DNA of 24,132 nucleotides from the IMG/VR virus record IMGVR_UViG_3300020045_013853, positions 1 through 24,132 of that record. One strand, 5' to 3'. The translations under genes were made by a program, and so were the position numbers. Shown piece by piece: positions 6,900-23,831 of the stretch. Origin of the DNA: a virus. Taxonomy: Duplodnaviria > Caudoviricetes. Numbering within the stretch: position 1 is the first letter of the stretch; each line of letters starts with the position of its first letter. A model generated the notes under the pieces. It was not told the origin of the DNA, made no database searches, and was given only the letters and a program-made list of their open reading frames with translations.

Positions 6900-7192
6900 C
6901 TTGTCCCACTTGTACCACTTATTTAGCAAACTTCTTTATAAGATAAAAAAAGCGTTATTTTCTAGTATTAATCATAATTACATTGTATAAAAAAACTACA
7001 ATATACAGATAATAGCCGTTATTTATATTTATATATACATAATATAAATAAGTGGTACAAGTGGGACAAGTGGTACATACTTTTATAATCAATAACTTGG
7101 AACGTACCACTTTTGTCCCACTTTTTTATAAGTGGTACATTTTTTGTCCCACTTGTACCGCTTTGTTCCACTCTGTACCGGTCTTTGTACCG
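6900..7192. repeat. Iteron array / putative replication origin
   Basis: More than ten TGT(A/C)CCACT-like units in both orientations. Perfect 26-bp inverted repeat at 6900-6925 and 7045-7070 flanking a 119-bp AT-rich spacer. Lies directly downstream of the primase-helicase. Confidence 0.75.
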
Positions 7193-13212: not shown

Positions 13213-13481
13213 AGCGCGACATAGAAAGATATTTTACAGCACAATGCAAAAAACACGGGCTACTCCAATATAAATTCAGTAGCCCAGCGGTTCGCAGTGT
13301 GCCAGACAGATTGCTGATACATAACGGCATAACGCAGTTTATTGAGTTTAAAGCCACTGGCAAACTACCAACCGAAAAACAATCCGCTGAACATTTTAAA
13401 ATCTATTCAGCGGGGGCTAAAGTTTGGGTCGTGGACTCGCGTGATGGTGTGGATATTTTAATTGGTGAGGTTTTGAAATAA
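13206..13481 (+). CDS. VRR-NUC domain nuclease
   Basis: E..IE, KF.SP....VPDR, FIEFKA, T..Q, V.VVDS motifs. Confidence 0.9.
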   Translation: MLERDIERYFTAQCKKHGLLQYKFSSPAVRSVPDRLLIHNGITQFIEFKATGKLPTEKQSAEHFKIYSAGAKVWVVDSRDGVDILIGEVLK

Positions 13482-13587
13482 TGATATAATTATTTTGTGG
13501 TCTAGGCTTAGCGGCTGAAAATGGCTTGAACACCCATTGACCACATAATCCTTTGTTCAATAACCTACCGTTCAATAGGTCATCAAA
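13482..13587 (+). ncRNA. Structured leader RNA, copy 1 (extended -10 + three-way junction + SD-masking hairpin)
   Basis: TGATATAAT 13482-13490. P1 TGTGGTC/GACCACA, P2 GGC-TTAGCG-GCT, P3 AATGG-CTTGAACAC-CCATT. Loop complements TGTTCAA 13554-13560 and GTTCAA 13570-13575. Confidence 0.75.
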
Positions 13588-14169
13588 ATGCAATTATACA
13601 AGTTAGATTTTCCAAACGGCAAAAGCTATATTGGAATAACATCAAAAACAGCTCAAGAAAGATTTAATCAGCATTGCTGCAAATCTAAAAACAAAAACCC
13701 TTGCCAACTAGCTATCCACAAATACGGCAAAGAAAATATAATTATCAATGTTTTAGCAGAATGTAACGATTGGGAGTTGCTCTGTCTGGCAGAACAAGAA
13801 GCTATTGAAAAATTTAATACATTCAAGCCAAGCGGATATAACCTTACAAAAGGCGGTGAAGGAGTTTTTGGCTTAAAATGGGATGATTTAAGTAATCATA
13901 GAAACTTGCGACCATTTTCAGATGAAACTAGATTGAAGATGTCCATTTCCGCTTCAAATAAAAGTAAAAATCATAGAAACAAAATTTCTCAAGCCAATAA
14001 AATAGCACAATCAACCATCGAGGCAAAGGAAAGACAAAGAAAGATTGCTATTGCACAGCGCAAAAAACAAAGAGAAGCAAAAGAACAGAAAGAAAAAGAA
14101 TTGGCATCCCATAAGGCAACAATCAGAACTAAAAGATTGTTACGCGAAATGGCGGATAGCTTTAAATAA
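13588..14169 (+). CDS. Free-standing GIY-YIG homing endonuclease with NUMOD3-like helical repeats
   Basis: QLY...GKSYIGIT, catalytic R (ERF..H), AI.KYG.EN, E...I, GYNLT.GGEG, FSDETRLKMS. Confidence 0.9.
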   Translation: MQLYKLDFPNGKSYIGITSKTAQERFNQHCCKSKNKNPCQLAIHKYGKENIIINVLAECNDWELLCLAEQEAIEKFNTFKPSGYNLTKGGEGVFGLKWDDLSNHRNLRPFSDETRLKMSISASNKSKNHRNKISQANKIAQSTIEAKERQRKIAIAQRKKQREAKEQKEKELASHKATIRTKRLLREMADSFK

Positions 14170-14931: not shown

Positions 14932-15306
14932 ATGTATTTAGAAACTCTTTTTAAAATTATATCAATCTCTGAAAATGTTGCTATTTTAAAATCACTTGAT
15001 AATAAAAACGAAACTATAACAATGCCTATAGGAGATGTTTATTGCATGACTGATTGGGATTATTACCCATTTGCACAAGATAGTTATGACATAAACCCAT
15101 TTAATCCTCTTCCTGATTTTAAAAAAGGAAAATTGCATCCTGCTTTTGATACTGAACATAGAATAAATTCATGGCTAATGTTTTGCCAATTTGAACGAAC
15201 TATTATTAGTGATAGAACAGATAGATGGGAGCAAGTGCGACTAACAGAAAAGCAATTAAATCGGTTTAATAAAAGATATTGGAGCAAGTTAAATGCTAAC
15301 CCTTAA
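14932..15306 (+). CDS. Hypothetical protein (AT-rich)
   Basis: 124 aa ORF that overlaps the helicase start. Confidence 0.6.
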   Translation: MYLETLFKIISISENVAILKSLDNKNETITMPIGDVYCMTDWDYYPFAQDSYDINPFNPLPDFKKGKLHPAFDTEHRINSWLMFCQFERTIISDRTDRWEQVRLTEKQLNRFNKRYWSKLNANP

Positions 15307-16605
15307 AAACCTGCACGGCTACCAAAAGCGGTTTATTCGATTTATTTTAGAGCGCAGAAAGGTTTGCGGATTTATAGACATGGGCATGGGAAAAACTGTA
15401 AGCACACTAACCGCCGTAAACCACCTGCTAACCACTAACAAAATTAAAAAGGTTCTTATTTTAGCCCCGCTTAGAGTGGCTTGGCACACTTGGGACAGCG
15501 AGGCTTTAAATTGGGAACACTTACAGCACTTGCAAATCAGCAAGATTTTAGGAGCTGTAGCAAATCGAGAACACGCGCTTAAATCTGATAAACCGATCCA
15601 CATAATCAACGTTGACAATATTCCGTGGCTAGTCGGTTATCTTGGCAAAAGCGGCTTTGATTACGATTGCCTGGTGATTGACGAACTATCGCAATTTAAA
15701 AACTCATCATCTAAACGCTGGAAAGAATTAAAAAAGACATTGCCAAGGTTTAAATACGTCATAGGATTGACTGGAACGCCCTGCCCTAACTCACTTTTAG
15801 AGCTTTGGAGTCAACTGTTTTTAATTGATAAAGGCGAAAGACTAGGAAAATCTTTTTATCAGTTTAAGCAGCACTATTTTACCCCTGATTACATGGGATA
15901 TAACCACACGATTAAGCCCGGTTCAGAAATTGAGATACAGAACAAAATAAAGGATATTTGCTTAAGCATGTCTGCTGCTGATTATCACCAGTTATTTTTA
16001 ACAATGTTTTAGTTGAGTTGCCACAATCGGCGCGTAAGGCTTACGACAAGCTTAAAAAAGACATGATTGCAGAGATACAAGGCATTCAAGTCAATCCAGC
16101 TAATGCTGCTGTTTTGGTTGGGAAACTACAGCAAATAGCACAAGGTTTCGCCTACTCTGAAACTGAGACTATCCAGATTCACACCGCAAAACTGGACGCG
16201 CTTGAAGAAATAATGAGCGAGGCGGGTAGTAATGCACTGCTGTTTTATAAATTCAAACGAGATGCTGAGGCGATAAAAAAAGCCTTTCCTGAATCTGTGA
16301 ACGTATCAGAACCAGGAGCGATTGAGAATTGGAATAACGGCAAAATCAGGCTGTTAATTGCCCACCCCATGAGTGCTGGACACGGGCTATCACTACAGTA
16401 TGGCGGTAACGTAATTGTATGGTATGGGCTTACTCATTCATGTGAGCTGTATTTACAGGGCAATGCGCGAATTGATAGACAAGGAAAAACCAAAACAACA
16501 ATAATTCATAGAATTATTTGTAAAGATACGGTTGATAGTTCAATAATTGCAGTAGTAGAGCGGCGTGAAAACATACAGACAGCTCTATTGAAATCATTAA
16601 AATAA
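15293..16605 (+). pseudogene. SNF2-family phage helicase split by a frameshift near 15981-16010
   Basis: N-half: HGYQ, DMGMGKT, DELS, LTGTP. C-half: HPMSAGHGLSLQ, Q.NARIDRQG. The -1 frame reads SPVIFNNVLVELPQ straight into the second ORF. Confidence 0.8.
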
Positions 16606-16708
16606 TGATATAATGATTTTGTGGTCTAGGCTTAGCGGCTGAAAATCCCTTCAGTAAGGATTGACCACTTATTCAATACTGCTTATAAACTTAACTGGAG
16701 TTTATCAA
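16606..16708 (+). ncRNA. Structured leader RNA, copy 2
   Basis: 46/47 nt identical to copy 1 over 16600-16646. P1 GTGGTC/GACCAC, P3 AATCC-CTTCAGTAA-GGATT. Loop complements TACTG 16677-16681 and ACTGGAG 16694-16700. Confidence 0.75.
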
Positions 16709-17599
16709 ATGTCAGAACAAATCTATTGTGTTTATAAACACACATCACCAAGCGGTAAAGCCTATATCGGGCAAACTAATAATTATAAACGTAGAGAATC
16801 AGAGCATAGGAATCATTCACGTGTTGAATGCAGAAGCTTTCAGAATGCCATAAAAAAATATGGATGGGATAATTTCAAGCATGAGATTTTAAAAGAAAAT
16901 CTAAATCTTGAAGAAGCTAATTATTGGGAAATTAAGCTAATAAATGATTTAAAAACATTTTCGCCCAATGGATATAATTTAAAAGGTGGAGGAAATGGGG
17001 TTTCTCATTCGCAGGAAACAATACAAAAAATGATAGCTACTAGGTCTAAAAAAGAATACAGGGATGCTCACTCAATACGCCAAAAATTAATTCATAATGA
17101 CCCTGAAAGAAAAGCTTTGGCATCTAAGAAAACTACTGATTATTTTAAAAAAGAAGAAAATAGAAAAGCGCAATCAATTAGACAAAAAGAATGCCAGAAT
17201 AGACCAGAAGTATTAATAAAAAAATCAGAAGCATCTAAAAAAGCATTATCAGACCCTTTAATAAGAAAAAAAATATCAGATGGGGTTAAGTTATCTCGGG
17301 AAAAAGAGGGATATAAAGAAAAAGTTTCAGAAGCTATGAAAAAATCACATGCTAGACCAGAGGTGAGAAAAAGATTATCAGATTCAATAAAAAAAGCACA
17401 ATCTAAAGAAGGCTATAAAGAAAAGATTTCAATAGCTTTAAAATTAGCTTTATCCAATAAAGATGTAAAAGAAAAAATGTCAATTGCAGGAAAAAATAGG
17501 CAAAAAAGGGAAAAACAAGAAAAAATAGATAGAGAAAAGAAAATAGCAATAGACAATAAGTCATTATTATTTAGTTGGATGCAAACAGATTTATTTTAA
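16709..17599 (+). CDS. Free-standing GIY-YIG homing endonuclease with nine 17-aa helical repeats
   Basis: CVY...GKAYIGQT, R...H, AIKKYGWDNF, E..LI, GYNL.GGG, HSQETIQKM. Start moved to the ATG at 16709 (GGAG RBS). Confidence 0.9.
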   Translation: MSEQIYCVYKHTSPSGKAYIGQTNNYKRRESEHRNHSRVECRSFQNAIKKYGWDNFKHEILKENLNLEEANYWEIKLINDLKTFSPNGYNLKGGGNGVSHSQETIQKMIATRSKKEYRDAHSIRQKLIHNDPERKALASKKTTDYFKKEENRKAQSIRQKECQNRPEVLIKKSEASKKALSDPLIRKKISDGVKLSREKEGYKEKVSEAMKKSHARPEVRKRLSDSIKKAQSKEGYKEKISIALKLALSNKDVKEKMSIAGKNRQKREKQEKIDREKKIAIDNKSLLFSWMQTDLF

Positions 17600-17716
17600 T
17601 CTGTAATAATGATAATCCACCGGATTATTGCATCAGATACAGTTGATACCGCGATTATTGACGTTTTAGAAAAAAGACAAACAATACAAAACGCGCTTTT
17701 ATCTGCCCTTAAATAG
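17600..17716 (+). pseudogene. Displaced duplicate 3' end of the SNF2 helicase gene
   Basis: IIHRIIASDTVDTAIIDVLEKRQTIQNALLSALK* versus helicase end IIHRIICKDTVDSSIIAVVERRENIQTALLKSLK*: 22/34 identical, ungapped. Confidence 0.9.
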
Positions 17717-17764
17717 ACTGGATTGATTATAAACTATTAGTTTAGCCTCTCTAAACCAATCAGG

Positions 17765-17810
17765 CGGTATTATTATAATACCGTTTATAAGATAATGAAT
17801 CACGGTCTGA
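17765..17810 (+). promoter_or_regulatory. Palindromic operator and putative promoter
   Basis: Perfect CGGTATTAT-T-ATAATACCG (17765-17783) containing TATAAT, then GATAAT and TCACGGTCTGA. Confidence 0.55.
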
Positions 17811-17852
17811 GAGAGACAGGATAATTAAAATTAAAAAGAAGAGGATAGCATC

Positions 17853-17975
17853 ATGAAAATTATTGATAAAGACGGGAATGAAGTTTTTAGAAGCTTTTCA
17901 GTCTTGGCAGTATGGGAAGAATTTCACGAAAAATATAATGCTTTGGGTTTTAGAGTAGTAAGCCTTAACTGGTAA
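17853..17975 (+). CDS. 40-aa hypothetical protein
   Basis: MKIIDKDGNEVFRSFSVLAVWEEFHEKYNALGFRVVSLNW*, GAGGA RBS. Confidence 0.55.
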   Translation: MKIIDKDGNEVFRSFSVLAVWEEFHEKYNALGFRVVSLNW

Positions 17976-21023: not shown

Positions 21024-21133
21024 TGGTATAATGTAGCCTCAAAACGTGAATACTCTTAGCGGGGGAAAAGCAATTATCGGTAATTGCCTGTCACGTTTCC
21101 AACTCATACCGACAATTTCTAACCGAGGAAATT
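21024..21133 (+). ncRNA. Structured leader RNA, copy 3 (diverged)
   Basis: TGGTATAAT 21024-21032. P1 AAACGTGA/TCACGTTT, P2 CTC-TTAGCG-GGG, GAAAA linker, P3 GCAATTA-TCGG-TAATTGC. Loop complements TACCGA 21107-21112 and ACCGA 21122-21126. Confidence 0.7.
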
Positions 21134-21706
21134 ATGAACAAAATTGAACAGGCTATCGCCTTAATTCTAAGCACTTCTTTAAGTGACAATCAAAAACAAC
21201 AAGCTTTATTGCTTGTATGTTCATCAGAACAAAACCAACCAAAACCCCAATTCAAACCCGTAAAAAACCCGCCACAAGATACGTTTGTTTATCTCATTGA
21301 GAACGAACAAGGACATATCAAAATAGGCTTTTCTGGCAATCCTGAAAAGAGATTAAGCCAATTAAAAACCGGTTGCCCCAGTGCTAAATTGCTTCATAAA
21401 TTCATTGGCACTATGCAAGATGAAAAGCACTTGCAATCATTGTTTTCTGGAAAGAATATCGACAAGGAATGGTTTAGATTAAATGGCGGTGATATTGAAG
21501 AGATAAAGGAGTATTTTGAAGTAAAGAAATCAATCAAAAATACTCAGCTTGAACAGCTAATACAATCAATTAATACAAAAGAGTTTTTTAAAAAAGAAAG
21601 CTTTGTTGGTGTTAATTCAATAAAAAGACAGTGCAAAACTGGAACTGGAAAAGCACAAGTTTTAATGACCATGCTTATTGAGCGTGGGGTTAATTTGTCT
21701 AAGTAA
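21134..21706 (+). CDS. T5orf172/MUG113-like GIY-YIG superfamily nuclease with C-terminal HTH-like domain
   Basis: FVYLI.....IKIGFS.NPEKRL.QL.TG.P, E..L...F......EWF.L. Confidence 0.88.
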   Translation: MNKIEQAIALILSTSLSDNQKQQALLLVCSSEQNQPKPQFKPVKNPPQDTFVYLIENEQGHIKIGFSGNPEKRLSQLKTGCPSAKLLHKFIGTMQDEKHLQSLFSGKNIDKEWFRLNGGDIEEIKEYFEVKKSIKNTQLEQLIQSINTKEFFKKESFVGVNSIKRQCKTGTGKAQVLMTMLIERGVNLSK

Positions 21707-22472: not shown

Positions 22473-22801
22473 ACCTACTGGATGAAGTATGCCGTGAATG
22501 TGGAGGCTCAGGCTCTCCAAAATATTTGAGATTATCAGAGCAAATTCCCGATGAGATTCCTGCATCACTTTGCGGTGTTTGCGGCGGTTCTGGAAAGATT
22601 CCGCACAAATCAGAAACTAAAAAAGGGCATGATGAAATGAGTTTATTGGTTGAAGAAGCAAAAGCAGTTGTTAGGTCTGGACAATTGTCATATAAAGCAA
22701 TGGTTTTAATTAACGGATTGATTGCTGAAAATGAGCAATTAAAAGAGCAAATTAAAGAACTCGAAGCGGATAAACCGAATAAGGGGCTAGACGACAAATG
22801 A
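22469..22801 (+). CDS. DnaJ-type CxxCxGxG Zn finger protein with C-terminal coiled coil
   Basis: CRECGGSG and CGVCGGSG. Confidence 0.7.
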   Translation: MNLLDEVCRECGGSGSPKYLRLSEQIPDEIPASLCGVCGGSGKIPHKSETKKGHDEMSLLVEEAKAVVRSGQLSYKAMVLINGLIAENEQLKEQIKELEADKPNKGLDDK

Positions 22802-23301
22802 CAAGCATAGAATGGAATAAATTAGTAATTGAGTTTGGCGAACAGGCTTATAAACAGGTATGTATTCGTGTGCCGCCTAACCGTTTTAGTTTTGAAGATA
22901 ATTTTCAGGTTGCTACCTGTGAAGATTTTGAAGAGATTGAGTCGATGCCTTTAACTGAGCTTTTTAGGCTTGATGTTGAGGCGTATGGTGATAATGCGTT
23001 TTTAATTTATGGATATTGCCATTTTGAAGGTGATGTAATAAATGATTTTTCATTCAATAGTCAAATTTTAGGATTGATAGAATCAGGTTATAGCGATAGA
23101 TTAATCCGCAAACAATCCGCCGCTTTGCCGTTTGATTTAGAAAGAGCAAAAGCGGGGGATATTTTTGAGGTAAAAGGCATTGATAATGCGTGGTTTGTAC
23201 CGTCCGAAAGTGAAGAGTCAAATAGTTTGATTACTATTTTTGAATCTTGCCCTAATCGCAAGGATTTACGCATGAAATACCCACCAAGGATAAGCAAATG
23301 A
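22798..23301 (+). CDS. Hypothetical protein, paralog A
   Basis: Shares four conserved blocks with 23298..23831. Confidence 0.75.
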   Translation: MTSIEWNKLVIEFGEQAYKQVCIRVPPNRFSFEDNFQVATCEDFEEIESMPLTELFRLDVEAYGDNAFLIYGYCHFEGDVINDFSFNSQILGLIESGYSDRLIRKQSAALPFDLERAKAGDIFEVKGIDNAWFVPSESEESNSLITIFESCPNRKDLRMKYPPRISK

Positions 23302-23831
23302 CAAGTAAAGAATGGCAGGATTTAGTAAACGAGTTTGGTGATGATGCTTTTAAACGCATTGGAGTAACGTTCATGGGCGAAGGCATTGGATATTCCAACC
23401 CAGAATGTAATTGTCATGTTGAGTTTTATGGCTCTCCATTAAGAAGTTTACAAGAACTTTTTAAACTTGATGTTGAGACTTATGGTGATAATGCTTATTT
23501 AATGTGGTTATTTGGCATTGATATTGCCGATTATGGAAATAATCCAGAAGCAAACCCTATTATTGAATCTTTTACAGCAGAAAATAATGACGATGCTAGA
23601 GAATCTTTTTTAAAAGCAGATTGTTATAAGCGCAAACAATCCGCAGCTTTGCCGTTTGACATAAATCGCGCACAGAATGGCGATGCTGTACAGGTTTTTA
23701 TTAATGCCGAATTGATTGACATGGATTATAAAAACTTTAGACCTGTAGGGGATTGGGACAATTTCAGCTTTAAATTTCCTGAAGATTTGCGCATGAAATA
23801 CCCGCCAAGGCTTGATAATGAAAACCGCTAA
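23298..23831 (+). CDS. Hypothetical protein, paralog B
   Basis: MTS.EW..LV.EFG, ELF.LDVE.YGDNA.L, RKQSAALPFD..RA and DLRMKYPPR shared with paralog A. Confidence 0.75.
   Translation: MTSKEWQDLVNEFGDDAFKRIGVTFMGEGIGYSNPECNCHVEFYGSPLRSLQELFKLDVETYGDNAYLMWLFGIDIADYGNNPEANPIIESFTAENNDDARESFLKADCYKRKQSAALPFDINRAQNGDAVQVFINAELIDMDYKNFRPVGDWDNFSFKFPEDLRMKYPPRLDNENR

Follow-up and report, generated by a model that had tools for sequence, protein, structure and literature searches.

Replacement of the 3' end of a gene by an incoming element is familiar from phage 21 and e14, whose integration into icd, dependent on an integrase and an att core, carries in a replacement 3' end and leaves the old end downstream. 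Among fungal mitochondrial genes, rps3 of Ophiostoma is a precedent for gene hybrids. According to the available text of PMC7282813, in WHO elements, which occur in the yeasts Torulaspora and Lachancea, the nuclease gene has a replacement 3' end of the target on one side and the old, displaced one on the other; the 5' part is near-identical between alleles, the 3' part is divergent, the downstream fragment serves as a homology arm, and no splicing is involved. The WHO proteins, for which cleavage has been shown, are of the HO-related intein/zinc-finger type, target the nuclear gene FBA1 and occur in tandem clusters (PMC7282813). Comparable gene hybrids are made by mobile endonuclease ORFs (mORFs) in fungal mitochondria, in atp6 of Allomyces and in atp6, atp9, cox2, and nad3 of Glomus (available text of PMC3630166; also PMC7487136). 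There, a foreign C-terminus stands in place and the native one, closest to the allele of a relative, lies about 1 kb downstream; the atp9 case of Glomus is a GIY-YIG one (PMC3630166).

In phages, the seg and mob genes of T4 are described in the available text of PMC2988022 as agents of intronless homing with allele co-conversion, and in ICP1 nuclease genes lie beside exchanged alleles (PMC10448857, available text). A duplicated terminus is not described in the available parts of either source (PMC2988022; PMC10448857), and no description of a terminus-replacing layout in a phage was found in the literature searched, which covered few subscription papers.

The locus presented here comes from an uncultured phage in which the end of a helicase gene is present in two versions, with a nuclease gene between them. 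It can be considered a well-polarised phage case of a terminus-replacing nuclease cassette, the underlying principle being already known. The window, i.e., the whole stretch of DNA that was analysed, is the complete virus record of 24,132 bases, estimated by CheckV to be 34% complete. The locus belongs to a replication module encoding a ssDNA-binding protein, a YqaJ recombinase, a PHROG 93 endonuclease, a first GIY-YIG protein (13588-14169), a Rha protein, an SNF2 helicase and, 3' of the latter and last of the listed members, a second GIY-YIG protein (16709-17599, plus strand).

The Helicase Gene and the Two Versions of Its 3' End

As assembled, the helicase gene is split by a frameshift into two plus-strand ORFs, 15293-16012 and 16018-16605, a split on which the sequence-only reading of this DNA was silent. 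The former, the N-terminal half (Pfam SNF2-rel_dom, E 1e-18), shares 211 of 231 residues with P0003, the closest relative, an intact helicase of 446 aa, and leaves the helicase frame after codon 231, at about 15985. Three-frame translation and alignment place the frameshift at 15983..15987, with a net 10 nt missing with respect to P0003; it may be a real mutation or an assembly error, and no listed contig piece from run X1, discussed below, covers it. The latter ORF matches the PHROG 62 DNA helicase (E 7e-60, 16018-16602), and its part 16018..16359 is the native body of the C-terminal half, identical to P0003 in 109 of 113 residues. Within the N-terminal half, the segment 15413-15592 forms a second patch divergent from P0003 (43/60) with no cassette alongside, so the helicase gene is mosaic in any case.

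The last 34 codons and the stop of the gene (16501-16605) have a second version at 17612-17716, as the sequence-only reading had claimed; the offset between the two is 1111 nt. The two align without gaps, with 22 of 34 residues and 63 of 105 bases identical and the stop at the same codon. In tblastn against the window each copy finds the other at E ~2e-11, the next match having an E of 0.5. That the tail is recoded is borne out by the base identity, by the third positions (12 of 35 identical), and by the use of different codons at 13 of the 22 common residues. Its frame is indeed that of the GIY-YIG gene (stop 17597-17599) and not that of the C-terminal half of the helicase, and it is indeed omitted from the ORF list, made with a 40-aa minimum; an ATG at 17609, 10 nt past the nuclease stop, opens a 35-aa ORF covering it. 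The longest exact run common to both copies is 7 bases, which explains the absence of the pair from the repeat finder's 20 largest families in the window.

Polarity of the Two Ends

In a search for longer proteins 53 helicases were found at E up to 1e-30, with P0003 84% identical and all others at most 52%. The near-identity of P0003 to the body, which extends to 16359, falls to 35/48 over 16360-16500 and to 21/34 in the in-place end, and returns to 33/34 in the downstream tail; in Fisher tests against the body the respective p values are 3.5e-5, 8e-7, and 1.0. With this one close protein as the reference, the tail (17612..17716, plus strand, 34 codons and a stop) can thus be identified as the native 3' end of the helicase gene, now displaced, and the in-place end as foreign. 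This is what had been anticipated in proposing that an empty allele should join the helicase body to the tail. The displaced native sequence may extend back to about 17601. A recent tandem duplication followed by divergence was rejected, as it disagrees with the 33 of 34 residues that the downstream copy shares with the relative and with the near-saturation of the two copies at third positions.

The drop over 16360-16500 marks a foreign patch and not a variable region, because the 52% helicase group conserves this stretch (about 36/48) above the body (50/113), i.e., the stretch is normally the better conserved of the two. The same group matches the two ends about equally (12-15 versus 10-13 of 34 residues), leaving the polarity undecided. 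The foreign replacement 3' end therefore runs on the plus strand from 16360 to 16605, comprises about 82 codons, and includes what are presumably helicase motifs V-VI. In the sequence-only reading it had started at 16501; its left edge is now placed at about 16360-16374 by P0003 and a contig of run X1 combined. The idea that the native tail was displaced holds for the last 34 codons, stranded downstream, and fails for about 47 native codons, which are missing from the genome. The greater AT-richness of the in-place end, on which the polarity had originally been based, pointed in the right direction (GC and GC3 of 0.295 and 0.17, against 0.352 and 0.29 in the downstream tail and 0.439 and 0.39 in the helicase body), yet it is a weak cue, since 16360-16500 is not AT-rich (GC 0.40-0.47 in 60-nt bins). 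The mobile unit proposed earlier, composed of the foreign 3' end, promoter, RNA leader, and nuclease, stands with a longer end than originally stated. The replacement end is in frame and complete. As the assembled helicase has already lost its reading frame ahead of the cassette, the restoration of the target gene put forward in the sequence-only reading is only a possibility.

A reciprocal arrangement is suggested by a 450-nt contig of run X1, two alignments of which were assigned to one record by size, depth, strand, and end. It has 67 differences from the window over 16108-16549, only 15 of them within 16374-16549, so that the identity rises from about 80% over 16108-16373 to about 91% over 16374-16549 (p 0.0017), a rise partly expected from motif conservation and traced on a contig that stops at 16549, before the cassette. 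The 10 differences listed away from the contig ends are all synonymous to the in-place allele, while P0003 differs at 7 residues there. This pattern implies that the in-place allele is joined elsewhere to another helicase body. In the run search one DNA run and no RNA run were listed as containing words of the window, the share in any run being at most 0.05; no piece or joint from run X1 crosses the cassette.

The Probable Empty Allele

P0003 is encoded on a contig of 10,747 bp, as are 90%-cluster partners of the window genes at 17853 and 18330 (seven proteins, P0003 included, were found). The first gene after the tail (17853..17975, plus strand) has as its partner P0177, identical in 36 of 40 residues, and belongs to the right homology arm, because it is common to the window and the probable empty-allele contig. 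Of 8 proteins found in another cluster search, none has a partner on a contig of this length. The nuclease forms a cluster by itself, and among the best 120 of its 480 relatives none lies on a contig of 10,747 bp. With P0003 and the partners of two downstream genes on contigs of this length and no close nuclease relative there, the contig, its records being equated by the length of 10,747 bp alone, is probably the empty allele. The nuclease gene, which has its own stop and leader and lies outside any intron or intein, is present in the window and absent from this probable empty allele; no intron RNA family was found in the window with Rfam.

Scans of further helicase loci gave best identities of 52% (viral and metagenome), 23% (genomes), and 46% (annotated phages). 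No short proteins resembling the replacement end were found, and no record in the annotated-phage DNA search covers the cassette. Nor was a second copy of the cassette detected, as none of 94 distant helicase loci, i.e., those with at least 1.2 kb of flank among 123 fetched and all at most 52% identical, has a GIY-YIG match. A generic end-duplication test on 167 loci gave the layout in the window only.

The Nuclease

The GIY-YIG endonuclease (16709..17599, plus strand, 296 aa) consists of an N-terminal catalytic domain and a repetitive basic C-terminal region. It matches Pfam GIY-YIG (E 8e-7, above the cut-off) and the PHROG 314 homing endonuclease (E 4e-26), and scores 53.6 bits against TIGR01453, under the 56.05 cut-off; a PDB sequence search returned no GIY-YIG match. 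Residues Y19, R29, H33, E74, and N90 are invariant across 12 aligned proteins and agree by spacing with Y17, R27, H31, E74, and N87 of I-BmoI, as given in the available text of PMC2853131. On this alignment the set of catalytic residues can be regarded as intact, and the free-standing enzyme combines a GIY-YIG homing endonuclease domain with the predicted catalytic Tyr, Arg, Glu, and Asn. Its relatives were found only at 55% identity or less. Three of them end with the same C-terminal motif and stop, so the stop preceding the tail is the gene's own, and a programmed fusion of nuclease and tail is unlikely.

Promoter-like Box and Leader RNA

Directly abutting the helicase stop, a putative extended -10-like box, TG-n-TATAAT (16606..16614, plus strand), was read by eye, without being listed by the -35/-10 scan. 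The same box precedes the other nuclease leader, and a -10-like hexamer precedes L084 and L085. The leader RNA that follows (16621..16668, plus strand) has a three-way junction with an outer stem (16621-16626 with 16663-16668), a short conserved hairpin, a GAAA linker, and a variable hairpin whose loop is 16649-16657. The surrounding segment 16597-16674 is 85% identical to 13473-13550, upstream of the other GIY-YIG gene. A 16-base leader core is present in 106 viral loci, and 14 of the 16 scanned loci with this core match the Rfam family int-alpA, RF02996, 7 of them above the cut-off. In the window, Rfam returned no family at a meaningful score: neither GIY-YIG leader copy was detected by RF02996, the one at 16621-16668 not even at E up to 10 (cut-off 35.8 bits), and the third leader copy, 21043-21111, scored 33.3 against the same cut-off. 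Alike in three-way junction and core and unlike in score, the leader can be classified as a divergent int-alpA-type RNA. Folded alone, it gave no significant result (z -1.4 and -0.1).

The variable loop is complementary to two downstream plus-strand sites, read by hand: 16677-16681 (5 bp) and 16694-16700 (7 bp, one G-U), the latter covering the GGAG located 8 nt upstream of the nuclease ATG. Such complementarity of the loop to two downstream sites (at least 5 bases) was found in 36 of 52 leaders, among which some near-duplicates remain, the redundancy filter being ungapped, and the window leader at 16621, mis-parsed in this count, is entered as a miss; 500 mismatched pairings gave 2.65 on average and never more than 8. 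The 52 were obtained from 108 matches by dropping 32 that lacked TA before the core or had an outer stem of fewer than 5 pairs, and by collapsing near-duplicates. The likely role of the leader is to repress translation of the nuclease. Among 36 ORFs downstream of leaders 13 are HNH, 2 GIY-YIG, 1 NUMOD3 only, 1 AP2 only, 4 DUF1376, 2 Rha, and 1 Bro-N, and 12 are unassigned.

The C4 antisense RNA represses in trans through a processed RNA; Rfam gave no C4 family match in the window or at the scanned leader loci. The loop-to-target logic of the leader resembles that of the C4 RNA of P1 and P7 as presented in the available text of PMC8198154. A function of int-alpA was not found in the literature searched, which included the main text of PMC5737381 and few subscription papers.

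Recurrence of the Layout at Other Leader Loci

Duplication of a gene end beside the leader was found in 3 of the 66 other leader matches with enough flank. At L187 the last 15 codons of an exonuclease gene reappear as the end of an HNH protein; in the 7 closest relatives the downstream copy is matched at 13-14 of 15 residues, the in-place copy at 11-12 of 15, and a second copy is present in none of 79 relatives. At L198 the duplicated end is a terminase tail of about 57 codons, found past a nuclease-like gene in convergent orientation; the two closest relatives (73%) agree with the in-place end at 41 of 54 residues versus 25 of 54 for the far copy. Of the two loci tested for polarity, L187 therefore agrees with the window and L198 is opposite. 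The third, L185, has a 20-codon N-terminal duplication in a head morphogenesis gene. The other two leader cassettes of the window have no duplicated gene end.

Relation to Described Elements

The cassette resembles WHO elements in layout (replacement end, nuclease, displaced end), in the allele pattern, and in the lack of splicing, and differs from them in the GIY-YIG enzyme, the phage helicase target, the single copy, the loss of about 47 native codons, and a cleavage that is only predicted. It is not a WHO element in the strict sense, the enzyme being a GIY-YIG one in a helicase gene and not an HO-related nuclease homing into FBA1. With mORFs it shares the order of body, replacement end, nuclease, and second end, with the native copy downstream, so that the analogy to fungal elements drawn in the sequence-only reading stands; mORFs are, however, mitochondrial and often in frame with the host gene, whereas the phage cassette has its own promoter-like box and regulatory leader. 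Like phage 21 and e14 in icd it brings a replacement end, without an integrase and with ends that share at most 7 consecutive bases. The seg and mob genes of T4 are alike in being phage-borne, in free-standing GIY-YIG enzymes beside a replication gene, in co-conversion of neighbouring alleles, and in translational control by RNA structure; they differ in being intergenic or in splitting the host gene into two polypeptides (available text of PMC2988022 and PMC10448857).

Proposed Mechanism and Alternative Explanations

Taken together, the GIY-YIG cassette is probably a WHO/mORF-like homing element in the 3' end of a phage helicase gene, whose nuclease is predicted to cut the empty allele and to spare the replaced one. 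In a mixed infection the nuclease would cut the native equivalent of 16360-16500 (motifs V-VI) in the empty allele, the cut being predicted there because no other part of the native end is missing from the cassette-bearing genome. The donor would then be copied during repair, with the helicase body as the left arm and the stranded tail with the downstream genes as the right arm. The recipient would gain a resistant, in-frame helicase end, and its own end would be left as the downstream fragment, in line with the WHO model (PMC7282813, available text). Synthesis of the nuclease would be limited by pairing of the leader loop with the ribosome-binding site; neither splicing nor an integrase would be required.

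The main rival to homing, though an unlikely one, is passive phage mosaicism, in which the module of promoter, leader, and nuclease would have arrived with a donor helicase end through two crossovers, one homologous and the other illegitimate, the end being a hitch-hiker with no role in resistance and the nuclease having its target elsewhere or none. The second divergent patch of the helicase, formed without a cassette, fits such an origin, as do the lack of a duplicated end in 63 of 66 leader matches and in both other leader cassettes of the window, the leader's presence ahead of genes other than nucleases (DUF1376, Rha, or Bro-N in 7 of 36 ORFs), and the opposite polarity at L198. The two ends of the cassette share a 10-nt direct repeat (16601 and 17605), which hints at microhomology joining, and the cuts made by free-standing T4 nucleases lie at distances of hundreds to thousands of bases (available text of PMC2988022). 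Passive exchange accounts less well for a foreign patch that restores the exact frame and stop and replaces the best-conserved motifs right beside an intact nuclease, for the recurrence of the layout with unrelated nucleases and genes, and for its match to elements with demonstrated allele-specific cleavage (PMC7282813, available text).

Two further explanations are both very improbable. A chimeric assembly, in which two related phages from the same sample were joined, would also explain the helicase frameshift, which could be an assembly error, and it is compatible with a locus that is represented by a single contig, with no run containing more than 0.05 of the window words and no piece spanning the cassette. 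Yet at most 7 consecutive bases are common to the two ends, and at most 10 to the C-terminal half of the helicase and the right junction region. Assembler word lengths are far above 7-10 bases. Misassembly is thus unlikely, as there is no repeat to confuse an assembler; moreover, the nuclease ends in the C-terminal motif of three relatives and the same layout occurs in other contigs. Alternatively, the downstream tail could yield a useful product, either a 35-aa peptide started at the ATG at 17609 or an extension of the nuclease through its stop, perhaps as one part of a helicase made in pieces; the position of this ATG in the nuclease frame, the lack of decay, and a frameshift near the middle of the helicase agree with this, and split T4-type enzymes reassemble (PMC2988022, available text). 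Nevertheless, no Shine-Dalgarno-like purine run precedes 17609, the in-place helicase end is complete, the nuclease stop is common to relatives, and the 33/34 identity of the tail equals the rate of the body, as expected for a recent displacement without selection.

Significance

If the cassette is the homing element proposed here, a strategy of yeast nuclei and fungal mitochondria is extended into phages, and the availability of a probable empty allele with a predicted target of about 141 bp makes allele-specific cutting directly testable. It is conceivable, and put forward tentatively, that phages harbour widespread splicing-free WHO-like homing elements, in which a self-limiting leader of the int-alpA type combined with any nuclease, GIY-YIG or HNH, would enter conserved genes (helicase, exonuclease, terminase, head protein) at their first or last codons by means of a resistant replacement terminus, swapping protein ends between phage lineages. 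Were this general, it would account for hybrid protein ends and for gene fragments hidden in phage genomes, and the orphan int-alpA RNA would be tied to the control of selfish nucleases.

Ends of the cassette and the interrupted helicase

The window holds only three copies of the 10-mer AATAATGATA: one at each cassette end (16601-16610 and 17605-17614) and one at the promoter of the other GIY-YIG gene (13477-13486). The residues directly ahead of the displaced helicase tail (17601-17611) read S-V-I-M in the window versus K-T-V in P0003, the closest intact relative of the helicase, and this stretch is possibly a junction scar. The displaced tail is followed by two hairpins (approximately 17718-17786; z of -2.8 for 17717-17860). 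A 40-nt inverted repeat (73%) has its copies 16 kb apart, at 1742-1781 and 17792-17831, each arm lying directly past a helicase gene.

The SNF2 helicase also carries a mid-protein frameshift at 15983-16018, with a net shortage of 10 nt relative to P0003; a TTG at 16018 lies 5 nt past the stop of the N-terminal half. The frameshift may be an assembly error, an inactivating lesion, a repair scar or the sign of a two-piece enzyme. A second patch divergent from P0003 (15413-15592, 43/60 residues) is flanked on both sides by near-identical sequence.

Other leader cassettes in the window

The second GIY-YIG gene with a leader (13473-14169) is located behind a PHROG 93 endonuclease gene, and has the same promoter-like box and leader as the cassette; its leader loop matches two downstream sites over 7 and 6 nt. 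At 21043-21706 a third int-alpA-like leader (33.3 bits) is followed by a T5orf172/MUG113 nuclease-like gene. A duplicated gene end was sought at both of these cassettes and found at neither. Elsewhere, a tandem pair of paralogous ORFs of 167 and 177 aa (22798-23831), without a Pfam family, shares DNA blocks 72-82% identical and approximately 500 nt apart, and the AT-rich segment immediately past the primase gene (6900-7180), with several inverted repeats, is origin-like.

Duplicated gene ends at other leader loci

At locus L198 (L277:3854-4976) the tail of the terminase large-subunit gene is present on both sides of a convergent cassette of leader and nuclease-like gene, and the in-place end is the copy matched by the closest relatives. 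At L187:2430-3282 a second copy of the last 15 exonuclease codons is fused to an HNH nuclease and forms its C-terminus; comparison with relatives favours the downstream copy as the native end. Finally, at L185 (2394-3580 in leader orientation) a head morphogenesis gene has its first 20 codons stranded upstream of a leader-plus-HNH cassette, and another start lies downstream; this is an N-terminal version of the duplicated-end layout.
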